Source: Dehalococcoidia bacterium
GTDB taxonomy: Bacteria > Chloroflexota > Dehalococcoidia > GIF9 > AB-539-J10
Reading direction: 5' to 3'
Assembly (NCBI GenBank): GCA_021157895.1
Contig: JAGGVQ010000006.1
Span: 80,208 to 144,207 of the forward strand
DNA: 64,000 bases
The notes below the pieces were generated by a model. It had not been told where the DNA came from and ran no database searches. It worked only from the letters and a program-made list of their open reading frames with translations. Positions 5,670 through 15,276 of the stretch are shown here, one piece after another. Made by a program: the position numbers and the translations under genes. Numbering within the stretch: position 1 is the stretch's first letter; the number at the start of each line of letters is the position of its first letter.

Positions 5670-7040
5670 TTAATAATGTGTGGATCTCCTAGATGGTTTT
5701 ATGTTGCCACGATAATCAGGAGCCATAATGTTAAATACCAGGCTTAATTGAGGATCTACCATGCGTGAGCTGATGCGAGCTTCAATTTCATCCAGAGAGA
5801 GGCATGTGGTAATTACGGTAGGAGCCCTGGCATTATAACGATAGTTAATTAGCTGGTAAAGCTTTTCTTGGGCCCAGGGGGTAGCAGCTTGTTCCCCAAA
5901 GTCATCCAGTATCAATAACGGGACCTTTTTAATGTTTTCAAAGGACTCGTCGTAGGATATGTTGCTCTGTGGACTGAAAGTAGAGCGAAGGTAATCTAAC
6001 AGGTCAGGTATGACAATAAAGAAAACAGGTTTGCCTTGTGTTAGCTGATAGTTGCCGATAGCTGCGGCCAGATGTGTTTTTCCACAGCCATTTACACCTT
6101 GAAATATCAACCAGCCCTCTGGAGAGTGGGAAAACTCTTCCGCCAGATGAAAAGCTTGACGTAAATTCTGTCTTTGCTCTGGGGGGAGTTCTAGCCTCTT
6201 GTGATCGAAGTTGTCGAATGTCATTTGCTTCAGTAGTTTTAATTGTAAGTTGTCTAATTTAACCAAAGAGGGTTCTTGCTCCAACCTGTATGCCTGACAG
6301 AAATTGCTGTCTGTGATATGTCGGCGCAAGCGCTCATCCATTTTTTCCAGTGCCACATCACTGGTAATCACGGTTGCTAGTTTGGCATCGAAGCGGTAGC
6401 TGAGTAGTTGCTCTAGTTTCTCCTTCGCCCATGGGGTTGTGCTCTGCGTAGTGAGATCATCGAGTATTAGCAGGGGGGCATTTTTTACTTTCTCGAATAT
6501 CTCGTCATAACTTGCATTACTTGTTGGACTAAATGCTGAGCGCATGTGGTCCAGTAAATCAGCTGCCGAAATATAAAATACTGCTTGGCCTAATGACAGG
6601 CGCTGGTTAGCGGTGGCGCAGGCTAGGTGGGTTTTACCACAACCGCTGGGTCCAAGCAATATCAACCAGCCTTCAGGATGATCGGCGAAGGATTTAGCAG
6701 CCTTGTATGCTTGAGCAAACTCCCCCTGTGTAATTATGTCCTTTGTTTTTCCCTGTGGTGATAAGGTGTCAAAAGTGAAGTGGGATAGAGCTCCCAGATT
6801 GCTGTACTGCTCCAGATATTGCGATTTTTCCTGTAGTATTTCGTCTTGGATACATTGACAGGGCACTATTCGATTGTAATCGGGCTTTCCTGAGGGCAAC
6901 AATGGATGAACAAAACGCGCTCCATTGCAAATAGGACATATTGTTTTTGTGGTGTGACTATCTTTTGACGAGATGTCCATATTTGCCTGAGATGTATTTG
7001 TCTGGATTACCCTTTTTAGTGTTTTGCCAATGTGTTCCAT
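5670..7040 (-). CDS. DnaC/DnaI-like helicase loader with two tandem AAA+ modules and an N-terminal zinc ribbon
   Basis: Zinc ribbon CPICNG...CQC. Module 1 has GPSGCGKTHL, LLILDDL and TVITSD. Module 2 has GVNGCGKTHL, LLILDDF and TVITT. An alternative start is at 6980. Confidence 0.75.
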   Translation of the reverse strand: MEHIGKTLKRVIQTNTSQANMDISSKDSHTTKTICPICNGARFVHPLLPSGKPDYNRIVPCQCIQDEILQEKSQYLEQYSNLGALSHFTFDTLSPQGKTKDIITQGEFAQAYKAAKSFADHPEGWLILLGPSGCGKTHLACATANQRLSLGQAVFYISAADLLDHMRSAFSPTSNASYDEIFEKVKNAPLLILDDLTTQSTTPWAKEKLEQLLSYRFDAKLATVITSDVALEKMDERLRRHITDSNFCQAYRLEQEPSLVKLDNLQLKLLKQMTFDNFDHKRLELPPEQRQNLRQAFHLAEEFSHSPEGWLIFQGVNGCGKTHLAAAIGNYQLTQGKPVFFIVIPDLLDYLRSTFSPQSNISYDESFENIKKVPLLILDDFGEQAATPWAQEKLYQLINYRYNARAPTVITTCLSLDEIEARISSRMVDPQLSLVFNIMAPDYRGNIKPSRRSTHY

Positions 7041-7620
7041 TTTTTTTGCCCTGGCTAGCCCATATTTCCAAAATTCGGGCGATGTATCTCCAACTGCGCT
7101 TGTTTGCCACCACTGCCTCTTTGAAGGCTTGTTCTATCCACTGGGGTGAGTATCGCTTCTCCGACTCCTTGAGTTCTTCCGCTATCATTGGTGTTATTAT
7201 ACCGATGTTCTGCTCGTATAAAGTAAATATATTGGGGGTGGTTTTCTTTCTTTCCCGATTGAGCTGTCTGAAATGTGCTTTGCCTTTCAGGACTTGCTCG
7301 ATTTCATTCCTGTCGGTGTTGTTGGCATAGATGTGCTGAATCTTTCCTCTTGAGTTGAGCGTGGCAGAAAATATGGCCCCGTGTTCAACTGCAAGTTTCA
7401 AGGCTTGTTTGAGTGTTTCCTCATCTAACTCGGCAATGGAACTGGCTTGGGATGCAAGTTCTTGGTATGTAACGTAGGCGGGGATTTTCTTTTTAGAGTG
7501 TAGTAGATAGAAAATAAGTAGAGTTGCTTTGATCTGGGCGATATCGTGAGTTTGTAATAACACATTGGTACAAAATAGGGAAGGTAGCGAGAAGAAGTCA
7601 GTACTCACTGTCTCTGTCAT
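6958..7620 (-). CDS. DnaD-domain replication protein
   Basis: C-terminal DnaD/DnaB_2 signature (NIFTLYEQNIGIITPMIAEELKE...WIEQAFKEAVVANKRSWRYIARILEIW). It lies 8 nt downstream of dnaB. Confidence 0.7.
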   Translation of the reverse strand: MTETVSTDFFSLPSLFCTNVLLQTHDIAQIKATLLIFYLLHSKKKIPAYVTYQELASQASSIAELDEETLKQALKLAVEHGAIFSATLNSRGKIQHIYANNTDRNEIEQVLKGKAHFRQLNRERKKTTPNIFTLYEQNIGIITPMIAEELKESEKRYSPQWIEQAFKEAVVANKRSWRYIARILEIWASQGKKNGTHWQNTKKGNPDKYISGKYGHLVKR

Positions 7621-9700: not shown

Positions 9701-10666
9701 TCACTTTTTGTCTATCCTGTCCCACATGTCACAGCGAGCTCCCCATCTCGCTAGGACTTTACCATCCATGGCAATTTGCGATATTTCACACAGGTTAGGA
9801 CAGGCTTTACAGGTGAAGGATGATATTTTGTATTCCGTATTGCTGATGCCGAAACCAGCAAAGCTACTTTTTCTGTGATCATCGCGCATTTCCTCGTGTA
9901 CTAACATGGCTGCCCCGATAGCACCCATCAACTCGTTATGAGGAGGCACAAATACCTCTGTATGGAAGGTTTCATTAAATGCCCTGATTATTCCTTGATT
10001 GAAGGCTACACCACCTTGGAATACCATCTTTGGCAGTATCGCTTTCCCTAGAGCGACATTGTTAAGATAGTTGCGCACTAGTGATTGACTTAATCCATAG
10101 ACGATATCATCGATAGGGTAACCCATCTGCTGTTTGTGTATCATGTCAGATTCAGCAAACACGGTGCAGCGTCCAGCAATTCGTGCTGGATTCTGGCTTC
10201 TCATGGCATGGCTGCCAAAGTCCTCAATCCTTATGTTGAGTCGCTCTGCCTGATGATCGAGGAAACTACCAGTTCCTGCTGCACATACCGAGTTCATGCC
10301 GAAGTCAACGACTATGCCATCACGAACAATTATTATCTTACTATCCTGCCCTCCGATTTCGAAAATAGTTTGAACATCAGGAACGTAATGCATTGCTGCC
10401 ACAGCGTGGGCTGTTATTTCATTCTTCACCAGATCTGCTCCGAGCATGACACCAGCGAGTTGTCTGCCACTGCCAGTGGTAGCAACTCCTGCGATCTGTG
10501 CCTCTTGGGGCATCTGGTTTCGTATTTTTTGCAATCCTTTTTTTATCATGTCCACGGGGTTACCTTGAGTCCTGGAGTAGATCGATGCCACCAAGTCGTA
10601 GTTTTCATTAATCAAAACTAGCTTAGTAGTAACTGATCCAACATCGACACCAAGGTAAGTTTTCAT
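9701..10666 (-). CDS. BcrAD/BadFG-family ATPase (2-hydroxyacyl-CoA dehydratase-type activase) with a Cys-rich C-terminal extension
   Basis: ASKHA fold start GVDVGSVTTKLVL. The cluster-ligand contexts CAAGTGSF and GRCTVFAESD are present, and the C-terminal tail is FTCKACPNLCEI...GARC. AGGAG lies 8 nt upstream of the ATG. Confidence 0.8.
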   Translation of the reverse strand: MKTYLGVDVGSVTTKLVLINENYDLVASIYSRTQGNPVDMIKKGLQKIRNQMPQEAQIAGVATTGSGRQLAGVMLGADLVKNEITAHAVAAMHYVPDVQTIFEIGGQDSKIIIVRDGIVVDFGMNSVCAAGTGSFLDHQAERLNIRIEDFGSHAMRSQNPARIAGRCTVFAESDMIHKQQMGYPIDDIVYGLSQSLVRNYLNNVALGKAILPKMVFQGGVAFNQGIIRAFNETFHTEVFVPPHNELMGAIGAAMLVHEEMRDDHRKSSFAGFGISNTEYKISSFTCKACPNLCEISQIAMDGKVLARWGARCDMWDRIDKK

Positions 10667-10677
10667 CGTGTATTCTC

Positions 10678-10887
10678 CTATTCCATCCTCTCCATGGATG
10701 TCCCTCCGAAGCTCTTAATCCTGCCCTTATTAGCATTTTTAATGCTTTCTTGTAGTTCCAACGACTTCCTTGCTTGTCGAGCCCAGAAAGGATGAAACAT
10801 TATCGCACTGATAGCCATAAATATGAAGAATATCAGCAGGAGCCTGCTATTGATAAGCTTACCTAGTGTTGTATATTCTTCTCCCAT
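10678..10887 (-). CDS. small single-pass membrane protein (69 aa)
   Basis: Strong SD (AGGAGaaaaaATG) and one hydrophobic helix (LLLIFFIFMAISAIMF). Its stop codon overlaps the SD of the activase gene. It overlaps the 3' end of the upstream gene by 29 nt in another frame. Confidence 0.4.
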   Translation of the reverse strand: MGEEYTTLGKLINSRLLLIFFIFMAISAIMFHPFWARQARKSLELQESIKNANKGRIKSFGGTSMERME

Positions 10888-11965
10888 TTTTTCTCCTGCG
10901 AAATTCCAGCAAATCTACAAAAGCTTCCAGTCTGGTTAATAATCCTTGTTTCCCCTGTTGCTCATCGCAGGTGACTGCGAGCACGGGTATATCCTCACGT
11001 GTAGAGGGCATAACATTTTGTGCTACTATTTCAGGCATACAGGTAAAGGGGGCCAGGTGAACTATTCCATCAAAACCTTTGTGAGCAAAGAGGATTTTTT
11101 CACCTACGGATTCCCAGCCATCGCCACCAACATCATGATCGATGTAGGGTTTGGCTAGATGGTGGACTTTCCTCCATTCATCCGCCCCGAGATAATTCAA
11201 GAATAAACTATATTTGACCCAGCGGGAAAGAGTCATCGTTCGTTCTACCTCGACCCCCAGTTTACCTAGTTCCTCCTCGATATCCATATTAGCGAAGGGT
11301 TCAATAACTACATAAATTTCGCCTACGACCCCCACCTTTAGGGGGTGATCTTTATTGTTTTTTTCGATGTGGTTGAGTTTCTCAATGTATTCTTTGGTTA
11401 TGTCTTTTATCCCTTTACGCTTTGTTGCCTCATCAATGTTTCGAATGGCTTCGTGGTAAATTTTGTTAGCTGTGCCTTTTTCTACCTCGATAGCTCGGAT
11501 TTCTTGAACTACTTTCTCTATCTTGTCTAGGGCAAATAGTTTGCTTATTCCAAAGAAAAATGCGGATGAAATTTCATACCACGAGGCATCATTGGCCAAA
11601 TTTTTTATTAGTCGCAGGATACTGATTAGCTTATTGTGCGATACATCTATGGTGAGAAATTTAGCACTATATCCCAGATCTCTCAATATCTGTTCTTGGT
11701 TTTTAGCATAATAGCCCAGTCGACAAATACCACTTCCCCTGGCCTGAGCTAATGTATTTGCTCCAAGCTCACATGTTTCAATTAGGCTTCCCAGAGTAAG
11801 TTTGTATGGCAAACAGGCCTCATAGGGAGAGTATTTTACCCCCAGGTTCAGAGTTTTTTGTGTCATGGGTGGAGGTATTATCAAGGCGTCCGTGATGCCT
11901 AGCTGCTGAGCTATTGCTTTCATGGGGACATAAACGTTGCCGAAATGAGGTATACCTAATTTCAT
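10859..11965 (-). CDS. DUF2229/HGD-D-like subunit B (acyl-CoA dehydratase activase-related protein)
   Basis: Paralog of 11990-12994. It shares the conserved Cys contexts (EACLPYK, APFTCMPE) and the C-terminal LTRLEAFVDLL. Confidence 0.7.
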   Translation of the reverse strand: MKLGIPHFGNVYVPMKAIAQQLGITDALIIPPPMTQKTLNLGVKYSPYEACLPYKLTLGSLIETCELGANTLAQARGSGICRLGYYAKNQEQILRDLGYSAKFLTIDVSHNKLISILRLIKNLANDASWYEISSAFFFGISKLFALDKIEKVVQEIRAIEVEKGTANKIYHEAIRNIDEATKRKGIKDITKEYIEKLNHIEKNNKDHPLKVGVVGEIYVVIEPFANMDIEEELGKLGVEVERTMTLSRWVKYSLFLNYLGADEWRKVHHLAKPYIDHDVGGDGWESVGEKILFAHKGFDGIVHLAPFTCMPEIVAQNVMPSTREDIPVLAVTCDEQQGKQGLLTRLEAFVDLLEFRRRKNGRRIYNTR

Positions 11966-11989
11966 ACTATTTATTTTCTCTTTTTGCGT

Positions 11990-12994
11990 CTAGCAATAAG
12001 CAGGGGAGGGGGTTGGGAGTTTTGTCCCTTTTCTCTTAATCATATCAAGAAAGGCTTCTAGGCGAGTTAGCATAGCGCCTCCACTACTGTGTTCATCTAG
12101 GCTGAGTGGCAGGAAAGGGGTCTTGGTATCCTTGGCACGATGCTCTACCCATACCATCATCATTGAATCAGGGCCGCAGCCGAAGGCGGAAAGGCTAATG
12201 ATTCCATCGACTTTCATTTCTGTGTAGTATTGTCCTGCACCGATAATATCTGGTTCAAAAGCCCAATGGGTTTCACCAACTGCTTTTGTTGCCGCGGCAT
12301 CTATAGCTGTCTGTGATGCCATTTCCGATGTAAGTATGTTGGCCCCCATATTTTGCAAATGATATATGATGCGGTGATTCAGATATTCATCATTAGTGAT
12401 ATAGGGATGTCCCAGCAGGGCGATGGTTAGGTTCCCTTGGGGGTTTTTCTGGGGACTTGCACTATGAGGGTTTCCATACAGGTCAGAGAGGGCCTGATTA
12501 GGTGTAATTTTCTCATCGGACATTTTTTTTCTGTAAGCTAGCTGCTTCTGCCATGCAATATCTATTGCTTTTTTCATCTTGACTGGGTTGGATGTGAAAT
12601 GGCTGGCCAATTTGTATATCTGGTGGTAAAAATACCAGCGCCCCTTTTCCAGGTCTATATTGGGGTCGAGAATGATAGGGCCCTCTGGGAGCACTGCTCT
12701 GGTTATATTGGGTAGCCCGATAATTTTGGAGCAGTTGTAGGTCTTCTTTCCGAAGCTGGTCATGCTGGGAATGAAAATGTAGTCACACTTGCTGATTAAG
12801 GATATTGTATGTCCCAGGAAGACTTTTACAGGTAAGCAGGTATCGGCAACTGCTCGGGATATTCCTGCGGTTAGTATAGTTCTGTTCGTTGGGGGTGATG
12901 TTACTACCTCTGCACCAAGGTGTTCGAAAAACGACCTCCACCCAGGATAATATTGATAATAGAGCAGAGCTCTAGGAATACCTACTTTATTCAT
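11990..12994 (-). CDS. DUF2229/HGD-D-like subunit A (acyl-CoA dehydratase activase-related protein)
   Basis: N-terminus KVGIPRALLYYQYYPGWRSFF, with DTCLPVK, SAFGCGPDS and the C-terminal LTRLEAFLDMI. Confidence 0.7.
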   Translation of the reverse strand: MNKVGIPRALLYYQYYPGWRSFFEHLGAEVVTSPPTNRTILTAGISRAVADTCLPVKVFLGHTISLISKCDYIFIPSMTSFGKKTYNCSKIIGLPNITRAVLPEGPIILDPNIDLEKGRWYFYHQIYKLASHFTSNPVKMKKAIDIAWQKQLAYRKKMSDEKITPNQALSDLYGNPHSASPQKNPQGNLTIALLGHPYITNDEYLNHRIIYHLQNMGANILTSEMASQTAIDAAATKAVGETHWAFEPDIIGAGQYYTEMKVDGIISLSAFGCGPDSMMMVWVEHRAKDTKTPFLPLSLDEHSSGGAMLTRLEAFLDMIKRKGTKLPTPSPAYC

Positions 12995-13044
12995 ACACCT
13001 GATAGATTAAATTCGGGGGTGTTTGAAGCAACTTCCGAAGGAGA

Positions 13045-13073
13045 ATTATACTCTATGTCGGAGTAAATTCCAA
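13045..13073 (-). promoter_or_regulatory. candidate sigma-70 promoter of the activase operon (TTGGAA-N17-TATAAT on the minus strand)
   Basis: Hexamers read directly: -35 at 13073-13068 and -10 at 13050-13045. It lies about 50 nt upstream of the ATG at 12994. Confidence 0.4.
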
Positions 13074-13310
13074 TTATAACTGGTGTTGCTCTTACATGTA
13101 GTCGTTATCTCAAAACTTTTTGCTGCACCATAGAAATCGAGATTGAAGAAGAGTTTTTTTTGATATCAGTGAATGATTCGAACTGGTGTAGTTAGTGATA
13201 GCAGCGGCGTGCTTGACTTCGAGGAAATAATTCGGCAATATATTCTGTCAGATTTGTCCATAAAACTATTGTGTCGGCCCGATTGCCCCAGCATGGAGGA
13301 GATGAATTGA
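13067..13310 (+). pseudogene. decayed, truncated DUF177 (YceD-like) gene remnant upstream of rpmF
   Basis: Two frames carry DUF177-like pieces. 13067-13195 reads ...LTCSRYLKTFCCTIEIEIEEEFF... and 13173-13310 reads ...VLDFEEIIRQYILSDLSIKLLCRPDCPSMEEMN*. There is no start codon for the first piece. The frame break lies just after a T8 run. Only about 315 nt are available where roughly 500 nt would be expected. Confidence 0.5.
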
Positions 13311-13311
13311 G

Positions 13312-13506
13312 ATGGCTCTACCCAAGAGAAAATATGCTAAATCAAGCCAGGGGAAAAGGCGCAGTCACATCAAGCTGCAGTTGCCTTCCCTGGATATTTG
13401 TCCCCAATGCCATAGTGCCAAACTGACTCATCATGCCTGTCCTGTCTGTGGCAACTATAATGGGAGGCTGGCTATCGAGATAAAAACCCCTAAAAATAGA
13501 GGGTAG
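13312..13506 (+). CDS. rpmF: 50S ribosomal protein L32
   Basis: MALPKRKYAKSSQGKRRSH... with the zinc ribbon CPQC...CPVCG. Confidence 0.9.
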   Translation: MALPKRKYAKSSQGKRRSHIKLQLPSLDICPQCHSAKLTHHACPVCGNYNGRLAIEIKTPKNRG

Positions 13507-13573
13507 CTTGTTTCCCCCAATTTCTGCTAGCGGTGCTCCTTTTTTTACTCTCATTTATTTAATAGTTGAGTCC

Positions 13574-13602
13574 TTGTCCTGACTATTTTAATCAGATATA
13601 AT
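13574..13602 (+). promoter_or_regulatory. candidate sigma-70 promoter for fabD-nusB-acpP (TTGTCC-N17-TATAAT)
   Basis: Hexamers at 13574-13579 and 13597-13602. GGAAGGAG followed by the ATG at 13640 lies downstream. Confidence 0.4.
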
Positions 13603-13639
13603 GCTCGACAATAAATATATAGGAAGGAGTGTGATACTT

Positions 13640-14578
13640 ATGGCTAAGGGTAACAAGGTAGCTTACATTTTCCCACCTCAGGGTCCTCAATATGTCGGCA
13701 TGGGTAAGGATTTAGCTGAGAAGTATTCAGCAGCTAAAGAGGTTTTCGACCAAGCTGATTCCCTCATGGGATACTCCCTTTCCAAAGTGATGTGGGAGGG
13801 TCCTTATGAGGATTTAACCCGGACTGACAATGTTCAACCAGCATTGCTGGTACATAGCATAGCTGCTATGAGAGCGGTGCAACAGGCAAGCGACAATTCT
13901 TTCCCCCAAGCTGACTTCACGGCAGGATATAGCTTGGGTGAATATATCTCTTTTGTAGCTGCTGGTGTTCTTACTTTTCCTGATTGTGTCAAGGTGCTCC
14001 AGCTAAGAGGTAGTTCCATGAATAAAGCTGCCCAAGCCTTTCCTGGAGGAATGACGGTGATAATAGGACTTGACCTCAAAGAGGTTGAAGACATTGCCCT
14101 GTGGAGTGGGACCGAGGTCTCCAATCTCAATTGTCCTGGACAGATAGTAGTTAGTGGGGCTAAATTCGCTGTGGAGAAAGCTGAGAGATTGGCTACAGAG
14201 AGAGGGGCTACAAAGACTGTACGCTTTAAGGTAAGTGGCGCTTTTCATTCATCGCTGATGATGCCGATCATTGGCGAGTATCTTGATGGAGCTCTGAAGT
14301 ATGATTTCAAGGCTCCCCAGTTTCCGGTGATTTCCAACTATTCTGCCAAGCCATTGACTACTGTTGATGCTATCAAGAGGGAGCTTGCTTTGCAGTTACG
14401 CAATGCTGTGAACTGGGAGGCATCCATTAATTATATGATCGATCAGGGAGTAACAACTTTTTACGAGATTGGTGCAGGGAAGCAGTGCTCGGGGTATATC
14501 AACAAGATTAACCCTGATGTTACAACGATTAACATTGGCACTGTGGAAGATATAGAAAACTTTCTCGCTTCTCATTAA
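13640..14578 (+). CDS. fabD: malonyl CoA-acyl carrier protein transacylase
   Basis: AYIFPPQGPQYVGMG, nucleophile elbow GYSLGEY, and VSGAFHSSLM. I chose the start at 13640 because of the GGAAGGAG SD. The ORF-track ATG at 13601 sits inside the -10 box. Confidence 0.85.
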   Translation: MAKGNKVAYIFPPQGPQYVGMGKDLAEKYSAAKEVFDQADSLMGYSLSKVMWEGPYEDLTRTDNVQPALLVHSIAAMRAVQQASDNSFPQADFTAGYSLGEYISFVAAGVLTFPDCVKVLQLRGSSMNKAAQAFPGGMTVIIGLDLKEVEDIALWSGTEVSNLNCPGQIVVSGAKFAVEKAERLATERGATKTVRFKVSGAFHSSLMMPIIGEYLDGALKYDFKAPQFPVISNYSAKPLTTVDAIKRELALQLRNAVNWEASINYMIDQGVTTFYEIGAGKQCSGYINKINPDVTTINIGTVEDIENFLASH

Positions 14579-14581
14579 CTT

Positions 14582-15019
14582 GTGTTAGGTTCGAGGCGGC
14601 AGGCGAGGATTATTGCTATCAAGGCATTGTATGAGTTGAGCTATACTGAGCATACAGTGGAATGGGTGATGCAGCGTGTGGTAGCAGAAGCAGGTTTGTC
14701 GCCCGAAGTGTCTGGTTTTGCGAAGGGGCTTATACAGGGAGTGTTGTGGCATACCCCACAGATTGATGCGGTGGTGAGGCGATTTGCTCCTGCCTTTCCT
14801 GTAGAACAGATGGCTGTCATAGATAACAGTATCCTGCGTCTGGGGATATTTGAAATCCTGTTTAGTGATAGTACACCGGACAAGGTGGCTATAGATGAAG
14901 CTGTTGAGATGGCCAAGCTGTTTGGCAGTGATGCTTCACCACGGTTGATTAATGGTGTGCTGGGAGCAGTGATGAGCGCGTCGGGAAGAAATAATGTTAA
15001 GGGGACAAAGGAGGAGTAA
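14582..15019 (+). CDS. nusB: transcription antitermination factor NusB
   Basis: [14 protein letters not shown]... and the typical C-terminal ...[26 protein letters not shown] start. Confidence 0.85.
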
Positions 15020-15276
15020 TGGCATCTATTCTGGAACGTTTGAAGAAAGTTGTGGCGGAACAACTGGATGTTGAAGAGAAGGATGTGACACCGCAAACAT
15101 CTTTTGCTGATGACCTTGGTGCGGATTCCTTGGATTTGGTAGAGCTAATTACAGCTGTGGAAGAGGAATTCAGCTCCCCTGATAAAAAGCTTGAGATAGC
15201 TGATGATGATGCTGAGAAGCTACAGAGTGTTCAGGATGCTATTGATTACCTCCGCGATCAGGGGATAGCGGACTAG
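15019..15276 (+). CDS. acpP: acyl carrier protein
   Basis: Phosphopantetheine attachment motif [13 protein letters not shown]. Confidence 0.9.

Follow-up and report, generated by a model that had tools for sequence, protein, structure and literature searches.

We analysed a 64,000-nucleotide (nt) stretch of a Dehalococcoidia contig, referred to below as the window, and concentrated on four genes at positions 9701–13073 (Table 1). Two of them encode the DUF2229-containing proteins Red1 and Red2, one a 69-residue membrane micro-protein and one an activator ATPase. A first-pass annotation, made from the letters alone, had described four co-directional, tightly spaced genes on the minus strand, and the places and lengths of the open reading frames (ORFs) were confirmed: Red1 and Red2 are separated by 24 nt, the micro-ORF overlaps the 3′ end of Red2 by 29 nt, and the ATPase gene follows after a gap of 11 nt. 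Judged by sequence, the Red1-Red2-ATPase module is a three-subunit, split relative of the lipid-modifying giant proteins PlsA/PlsR and Ger, within the benzoyl-coenzyme A (CoA) reductase/2-hydroxyacyl-CoA dehydratase superfamily.

Table 1. Features of the module, its flank in the window and reference loci in other genomes. Positions without a locus label refer to the window.
Feature	Position	Strand	Description
Red1	11990–12994	minus	334 amino acids (aa); full DUF2229 plus C-terminal HGD-D-like motif; counterpart of the PlsA C-terminal 'Red1' domain
Red2	10859–11965	minus	368 aa; Red1 paralog with partial DUF2229; counterpart of PlsR or the 'Red2' domain
Micro-ORF	10678–10887	minus	69 aa; single-pass membrane protein, lineage-specific
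Act (ATPase)	9701–10666	minus	321 aa; HgdC-type activator ATPase ('archerase') with C-terminal CX2CX3C-X18-C tail; counterpart of PlsA Act2
Promoter candidate	13045–13073	minus	Sigma-70-like, TTGGAA-N17-TATAAT; about 50 nt upstream of the Red1 start codon
rpmF-fabD-nusB-acpP	13312–15276	plus	Divergent, outside the module; NCBIfam matches to L32, FabD (274 bits, cut-off 260.9), NusB and ACP
Example of the extended operon	L027:7757–9004 and L027:12080–14591		Typical of about 23 Dehalococcoidia loci
spoVA-linked Bacillota loci	L069:6002–8915, L072:6108–8988, L073, L075, L078, L080, L082, L087		

The domain assignments made at first pass (BcrAD_BadFG, DUF2229 and HGD-D) were borne out by scans with family models, with the HGD-D match partial and confined to Red1. 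The ATPase matched PF01869 at 166.6 bits (cut-off 31.5) and TIGR00241 at 191.4 bits (cut-off 125.4). Red1 covered positions 1–217 of the 218 in the DUF2229 model (PF09989; 178.3 bits, cut-off 29.4) and, at its C-terminus, positions 278–342 of the 342 in HGD-D (PF06050; 34.0 bits), amounting to about 65 C-terminal positions only. Red2 gave a partial DUF2229 match (43.1 bits against the same cut-off) and no HGD-D match in the Pfam scan. The two Red proteins are paralogs over their full length, as had been proposed (BLASTP identity 21%, E 1e-11; hhalign probability 99.2%). All motifs quoted in the first-pass annotation are present, namely TCLPVK/ACLPYK, FGCGPD/FTCMPE and LTRLEAF.D in the Red pair and CAAGTG, CTVFAES and CKACPNLC...C in the ATPase, and their cysteines are invariant in alignments of 61–84 orthologues.

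Giant BcrAD-BcrAD-DUF2229 proteins have been known since 2021–22 as the plasmalogen synthase PlsA/PlsR and the glycerol ester reductase Ger (PMC13159169, PMC8788747, PMC9702350, PMC12838417), whose target is the sn-1 ester of membrane glycerolipids (PMC13159169, PMC9702350, PMC12838417). The earlier statement that DUF2229 partner proteins lack a known substrate is outdated in the light of these assignments (PMC13159169, PMC9702350, PMC12838417). When expressed in E. coli, plsA-plsR of Clostridium perfringens (CPE1194/CPE1195) converted diacyl lipids to plasmalogens, and Ger, a 'modified PlsA' from Thermotoga maritima (Tmari_0479) and Desulfatibacillum alkenivorans (SHJ90043), reduced the sn-1 ester to a saturated alkyl ether (PMC13159169, PMC8788747, PMC9702350, PMC12838417). 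Single-gene forms occur in Enterococcus, Listeria, Lactococcus and Bifidobacterium, and the Listeria PlsA-type orthologues are reported to be active anaerobically (PMC9702350). Lipid sn-1 ester reduction by PlsA/PlsR and Ger is the sole experimentally assigned DUF2229 function in the literature searched (PMC13159169, PMC8788747, PMC9702350).

We compared the window proteins with eight giants found by tblastn of plasmid-labelled records, from Listeria, Collinsella, Fusobacterium (plsA and plsR), Haliovirga, Acetoanaerobium, Subdoligranulum, Brevibacillus and Paraclostridium. The Listeria monocytogenes giant is a single gene of 1475 aa, the Collinsella giant is likewise fused and has a TetR gene upstream, and Fusobacterium carries a two-gene pair, plsA (975 aa) and plsR (404 aa). 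The Subdoligranulum giant is of PlsA length, the comparison covering the gene itself, with its neighbour outside. Each window protein mapped to one giant module, and the homology was collinear per module. By BLASTP, the ATPase aligned better to Act2 than to Act1, Cys tail included, with 32% identity to Listeria residues 319–639 and 29–40% to the other giants. Red1 aligned to the DUF2229 region of all eight (23–26%, E 1e-14 to 1e-27), including residues 670–973 of the Listeria giant (26%, about 3e-23) and residues 662–973 of Fusobacterium PlsA. Red2 aligned to Fusobacterium PlsR (23%, 1e-12) and to the Red2 region of the Listeria, Collinsella, Haliovirga and Acetoanaerobium giants (20–25% and E 1e-9 to 1e-15 across these; about 2e-15 for Listeria residues 1012–1353), and the same searches gave no separate Red2 match in the Paraclostridium or Brevibacillus giants. 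The full domain complement of PlsA/PlsR, a Cys-tailed activase, Red1 (DUF2229) and Red2 (PlsR), is thus present in the window, distributed over three genes in the order Red1-Red2-Act and with one activase domain instead of the two fused in the giants. An anaerobic lifestyle and the lack of accessory pathway genes are further features in common.

Ger was compared by domain description (BBDH-D(D)H; PMC13159169); it has the same Pfam domains and, unlike the window module, is a single giant protein. The Pfam order in Red1, DUF2229 followed by HGD-D, is that of the Paraclostridium giant and of the Ger 'DH' (PMC13159169), and is closer to the latter than to the PlsA type: the Listeria and Fusobacterium PlsA proteins gave no HGD-D match in the Pfam scan, whereas window Red1 keeps a recognizable C-terminal one. 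Written as domain strings, the window reads B / D+H / D and Monoglobus B / D+H / D+H. The Paraclostridium giant, a 1282-aa BcrAD-BcrAD-DUF2229-HGD-D protein of Paraclostridium bifermentans plasmid pHD0315_2-2 (L089:3189–7037), is distinctive in its own right. The four-Cys tail is missing from its Act2, and its 360 C-terminal residues resemble neither Red2 nor a Pfam family. Genes for a Crp/Fnr regulator and an ABC transporter lie on its flanks, and it has the DEH...TR.EAF motif in common with the split family.

The cysteines follow the same modular correspondence, with three per Red domain and six in the activase, as in PlsA/PlsR. Red1 C53, C88 and C273 do not vary among 84 orthologues and also occur in PlsA-type giants; Red2 C51, C81 and C309 are likewise invariant across 76 orthologues and occur in PlsR/Red2; and ATPase C128, C167, C286, C289, C293 and C312 are unchanged in all 61 orthologues as well as in three PlsA-type Act2 domains. 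C128 (CAAGTG) and C167 (RCTVF) also occur in Act2 of five giants, and we equate them with the [4Fe-4S]-bridging ligands of HgdC through published structures (described in PMC11574389). The Red1, Red2 and tail cysteines (C286/C289/C293/C312) are common to the Listeria, Fusobacterium and Collinsella giants; the split family and the PlsA-type giants keep every one of the ten candidate ligand cysteines, those of the unusual CX2CX3C...C tail among them.

The AlphaFold2 model of Red1 had a predicted local distance difference test (pLDDT) score of 85.6, and its top 15 Foldseek matches were all double-cubane cluster protein (DCCP), HadB/C, BzdNO or MbdON; for Red2 (pLDDT 69.6, with a poor C-terminal half) the top 11 were HadB/C, DCCP, Mbd and Bzd. 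The models thus matched solely catalytic subunits, those of DCCP, 2-hydroxyisocaproyl-CoA dehydratase and the Bzd/Mbd benzoyl-CoA reductases. No solved PlsA-like structure turned up when the PDB was searched by sequence, and there the approximately 65 C-terminal residues alone matched DCCP and HadC. The best PDB sequence match of the Red1 profile was DCCP (9e-6), and a wide-alignment profile, A1, reached HadC at E 0.003. Among PDB sequences, the ATPase was closest to HadI (4eht, 5e-41), MbdQ (3e-40) and HgdC (1hux, 4e-37), and its alignment to these solved chains (243–276 aa) stops near residue 260, short of the four-Cys tail.

A conventional 2-hydroxyacyl-CoA dehydratase with its activator, acting in amino-acid fermentation, is what automatic annotation implies, PGAP naming the orthologues '2-hydroxyacyl-CoA dehydratase' and 'acyl-CoA dehydratase activase'. 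HadI/HadBC and HgdC/HgdAB do resemble the module in having a closely related ATPase with two bridging cysteines, the same fold, three-Cys sites and a paralogous catalytic pair, and the HadI, HgdC and HadC matches and the 34-bit HGD-D score point the same way. This identity is nonetheless very improbable: the HGD-D match spans the last ~65 of 342 model positions and is missing from Red2, the bulk of Red1 is DUF2229, the activase carries a PlsA-type tail that HadI and HgdC lack, and no CoA-transferase, acyl-CoA dehydrogenase or 2-hydroxyacid dehydrogenase was found among the recurrent neighbour families of 42 sampled loci. Gene neighbourhoods at these loci likewise revealed no consistent co-occurrence with a dehydratase pathway, in line with the first-pass annotation.

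A class I benzoyl-CoA-reductase-like or DCCP-like reductase of aromatic or other small-molecule substrates is a still more remote identity. DCCP/DCCP-R (PDB 6eno, 7yyl) is the best structural and profile-sequence match of Red1 and is also an ATP-dependent two-component reductase, and BzdNO, MbdON and MbdQ recur among the matches. A double cubane [8Fe-9S] cluster needs six cysteines, and DCCP is a homodimer with a six-Cys site; the window instead has two paralogous subunits with merely three invariant cysteines each. The NCBIfam double_cubane equivalog (NF040772) scored 20.3 bits against a cut-off of 350, BcrA 114 (cut-off 578), BcrD 79 (cut-off 313) and BzdQ 76 (cut-off 380), and aromatic-degradation genes were absent from the recurrent neighbours of the 42 sampled loci. 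Membership in the dehydratase fermentation enzymes, the benzoyl-CoA reductases and DCCP thus fails on model scores, cysteine counts and context.

We next placed the split family relative to the eight sampled giants by neighbour-joining trees with Poisson distances and bootstrap. Split and giant sequences grouped together inside the Red1 clade and inside the Red2 clade, with a Red1/Red2 bipartition of 99%; since both forms are mixed within each clade, the Red1/Red2 duplication is older than the divergence of split and giant forms. In the Red1 tree, the split family was monophyletic (100%), as were seven of the giants (100%), and all eight including Paraclostridium grouped at 70%. Mean identity was 24% between split and giant forms, 36% within the giants and 39% when the split forms of Dehalococcoidia and Bacillota were compared. 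By homology, the module is a new, split and phylogenetically distinct form of a known kind of enzyme, with a function predicted from its sister family.

The split form had been presented as unusual at first pass, and this did not hold. Red1 has 4672 relatives at E <= 1e-5 among 90% clusters, and a phmmer search of 1.84 billion representatives returned 2647 at E <= 1e-3 and 429 at E <= 1e-30. None of the best 150 of these 2647 is a giant: they are either about 330 aa long, shorter still as fragments, or fusions of Red1 and Red2 measuring about 700–770 aa. A locus scan with a narrower alignment, A2, and one genome per species yielded 80 loci, and the Red1-Red2-ATPase order was found in approximately 75 genomes of Dehalococcoidia, spore-forming Bacillota and Sumerlaeota. 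It is kept throughout Dehalococcoidia (Red1 identity 43–94%) and in spore-forming Bacillota (Halanaerobiales, Desulfotomaculia, Thermoanaerobacterales, Sporotomaculum and Tepidanaerobacter; 36–42%), and occurs in one Sumerlaeota genome. All carriers belong to anoxic lineages or habitats; cultured ones include Sporotomaculum syntrophicum, Desulfoscipio geothermicus, a Halothermothrix isolate, Tepidanaerobacter and Monoglobus pectinilyticus. The split form is therefore a widespread, conserved three-gene module and no oddity of the window genome. The contig nearest to the window is from a Dehalococcoidia metagenome-assembled genome (L001; 94–98% protein identity), and a search of sequencing runs found near-identical DNA in hydrothermal-vent, marine-sediment, cold-seep and brine metagenomes, the matching runs all being DNA; the window genome itself is of marine-sediment or vent origin.

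Several loci depart from this arrangement. Red1-Red2 fusions of about 700–770 aa are encoded at L074:9001–11187 and in P0121, P0126, P0127 and others; four loci (L063, L065, L074 and L082) have no adjacent ATPase; and in L062 and L084 Red1 is directly followed by the ATPase, with no Red2 match. Two Dehalococcoidia genomes hold a remnant of about 420 nt (L007:6810–7232 and L008:8001–8422) at the syntenic site between the M20D gene and trxB, in which Red1 residues ~3–114 and 209–269 are fused to ATPase residues 286–316; the module has therefore been deleted in both.

The genomic context was profiled by a Pfam scan of the three nearest ORFs on each side at 20 mainly Bacillota and 22 Dehalococcoidia loci, with counts then obtained by tblastn. 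In the window, the neighbours are those given at first pass: L9 (rplI) and DnaB, with a DnaD-domain protein and a double DnaC-like protein, on one flank, and rpmF-fabD-nusB-acpP on the other. The accompanying claim that no pathway gene adjoins the module stands for CoA-transferases and dehydrogenases; it does not stand for lipid synthesis, to which fabD and acpP belong. The usual order in Dehalococcoidia is M20D amidohydrolase, Red1, Red2, ATPase, plsX, trxA, a 112-aa ORF and trxB. The end of the M20D gene (TIGR01891) overlaps the Red1 start in 33 of 50 Dehalococcoidia loci; plsX (TIGR00182, 315.9 bits, cut-off 243.4) is the next gene after the ATPase in 23 of 41, in several of them at a distance of about 18 nt; rplI-dnaB follows farther downstream in 21 of 32; and a divergent fabD lies within 3.5 kb, with rpmF-fabD-nusB-acpP beside the module, in 14 of 39, the window included. 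In the subgroup of the window, this position has no plsX and the ATPase is followed by trxB instead (12 of 41 loci), and the window and its nearest relative have additionally lost M20D and trxB here.

In Bacillota, the module directly follows spoVAC-spoVAD-spoVAE-spoVAF in 12 of 18 loci, with gaps of 0–80 nt and a 4-nt gap or overlap at the junction in L072, L073 and L082, and its position suggests the distal end of the forespore spoVA operon. Downstream lie a GDSL hydrolase or M50 peptidase, the CCA-adding enzyme and lysA. A link to diaminopimelate or dipicolinate, suggested by the recurrence of lysA, dapF and an M20 gene nearby, was set aside because lysA follows spoVA in Bacillus even where the module is absent, Dehalococcoidia are non-sporulating, and the M20 gene is a generic TIGR01891 amidohydrolase.

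The micro-ORF described at first pass proved to be a genuine gene, restricted to one Dehalococcoidia subclade. Its product matched no family in Pfam and NCBIfam scans, has one transmembrane helix (Kyte-Doolittle 19-residue maximum 2.38) and is intact in nine further genomes, ten with the window, at 45–97% identity. Seven of these nine ORFs encode 69 aa from an ATG and two encode 81–84 aa from an upstream TTG, with a conserved C-terminal motif, ALELQESIK...SFGGTS. The micro-ORF is missing in L004–L006, and outside its subclade the ATPase start codon overlaps the Red2 stop.

Taken by homology, the machinery is clear, and the general picture drawn at first pass, an HgdC-type, ATP-driven electron-injecting system, is the right one: the ATPase is predicted to drive a low-potential electron into a heterodimer of paralogous three-Cys [4Fe-4S] subunits. 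Beyond this, our preferred and tentative reading, with a probability of roughly 45%, is that the module acts as an ester-to-ether lipid reductase, converting the sn-1 acyl ester to alkenyl or alkyl ethers. We favour it because the module-specific homology is complete, down to the unusual activase tail; because lipid ester reduction is the only DUF2229 function found in the literature searched; because there are two independent associations with phospholipid and fatty-acid genes in Dehalococcoidia; because no substrate-supplying pathway recurs nearby, which suits an enzyme acting on a bulk cell component; and because a membrane micro-protein lies within the operon.

We infer cluster binding, subunit assembly, electron donor, lipid substrate and product alike from the homologous systems. 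The ATPase would dimerize around one [4Fe-4S] cluster held by C128 and C167 of each monomer, filling the role of the two fused activase domains in the giants, and would be reduced by a low-potential donor; the four-Cys tail may hold a further cluster or metal, as an entry point or docking element. Hydrolysis of ATP would then inject the electron into the Red1/Red2 heterodimer, each subunit of which is expected to hold a [4Fe-4S] cluster through three cysteines, leaving one iron free. At that site a membrane glycerophospholipid would have its sn-1 acyl ester reduced in two one-electron steps to a hemiacetal-level intermediate, and dehydration of the latter would give the 1-alkenyl (plasmalogen) ether, possibly reduced further to the 1-alkyl ether. 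The micro-protein is possibly a membrane anchor, and in this lineage may tether the otherwise soluble complex to the membrane.

A number of points weigh against a lipid reductase. Identity to the PlsA-type giants is merely 20–26% for Red1 and Red2 and 29–40% for the ATPase (20–40% in all), and the comparison set consists of the eight sampled giants in place of the experimentally tested C. perfringens PlsA/PlsR and the T. maritima and D. alkenivorans Ger. By sequence comparison, the split family forms a sister group to these giants and does not fall among them, and the lipid function is therefore carried over from a sister family. Red1 H302, E313 and F315 and Red2 K55 and E312 are invariant in the split family and differ from the PlsA-type giants, which could point to other chemistry or another substrate. 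The three enzymes themselves lack membrane segments, and no lipid data for these Dehalococcoidia were found in the literature searched. As to context, no plsX homologue occurs anywhere in the 64-kb window, trxA, trxB, rplI and dnaB adjoin the module too, the plsX/fab adjacency could reflect the mixing of housekeeping genes typical of small genomes, and the spoVA-linked Bacillota modules have no nearby lipid gene.

The main alternative retains the machinery, an activase with a heterodimeric [4Fe-4S] core, and gives it another substrate, making the family a functionally separate DUF2229 branch; such a branch might, for instance, carry out a reduction or dehydration needed to build the envelope or the spore, or act on an acyl-phosphate or acyl-ACP rather than on a finished phospholipid. 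We hold this to be a serious, if somewhat improbable, alternative. It draws on the separate clade (100% bootstrap, ~24% identity to giants), on family-specific invariant residues near the C-terminal cluster motif (DEH302 versus DE(I/V) in PlsA-type giants), on the position at the 3′ end of the Bacillota spoVA operon, after spoVAF, and on the M20D overlap with nearby trxA/trxB in Dehalococcoidia. However, no recurrent neighbour points to an alternative substrate, the spoVA and plsX contexts have no obvious small-molecule pathway in common, all cluster ligands and the special activase tail are common to the PlsA-type enzymes, and the lipid-gene associations would have to be coincidence. The stricter version, in which the split family is not an ether-lipid synthase and would instead be a separate ATP-driven [4Fe-4S] reductase or dehydratase with its own substrate, appears unlikely. 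It takes the module to be co-transcribed with plsX and M20D in Dehalococcoidia and, among anaerobic spore-formers, with the forespore spoVA operon, and would, if true, imply a new membrane- or spore-biogenesis reaction in two distant anaerobic phyla.

Should the lipid reductase reading be correct, Dehalococcoidia, which are among the most abundant bacteria of anoxic marine sediments, would become candidate makers of non-isoprenoid alkenyl and alkyl glycerol ethers, with a bearing on the 'lipid divide' and on sedimentary biomarkers. PlsA/Ger surveys requiring long coverage would not have picked them up: published Ger screens set a minimum query coverage of 30% or sought full-length matches (PMC13159169; bioRxiv 10.64898/2026.06.23.733905), and separate proteins of about 330 aa would probably escape such filters. 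The literature searched held nothing relevant on the split module, spoVA-linked activases or Dehalococcoidia plasmalogens. The split form offers three separately expressible subunits, and enzymology could become easier than with the giants, which are without a solved structure. The spoVA link raises the idea that the forespore membrane undergoes chemical remodelling while dipicolinate is being taken up. Even if the lipid interpretation fails, what remains is a widespread and conserved family of ATP-driven iron-sulfur enzymes.

The promoter proposed at first pass fared less well than the genes. The site is present and agrees with the consensus at 10 of 12 positions, but such sites are not rarer than chance (12 observed versus 8.5 ± 3.0 in shuffled sequence), and because comparable sites are as frequent in shuffled sequence it remains a promoter candidate only. 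Its sole extra support is that the relative L001 carries TTTGAA-N17-TATAAT at the same site, inside a near-identical block of about 110 nt. In the alignment of window positions 12995–13320 with L001:6600–6935, identity ends abruptly about 115 nt upstream of the Red1 start, where other relatives have the M20D gene, consistent with a recent deletion or rearrangement.

Two further arrangements around the module were observed. The fatty-acid cluster of the window is unusual in having nusB inserted and in not including plsX, fabH and fabG. On the other flank, positions 5670–7040 of the minus strand encode a 456-aa protein with two tandem DnaC/IstB-like AAA+ modules and a Cys-rich N-terminal stretch; its gene overlaps by about 80 nt the DnaD-domain gene at 6958–7620 (minus strand), downstream of dnaB, and this double-DnaC/DnaD arrangement is conserved in all Dehalococcoidia loci examined.

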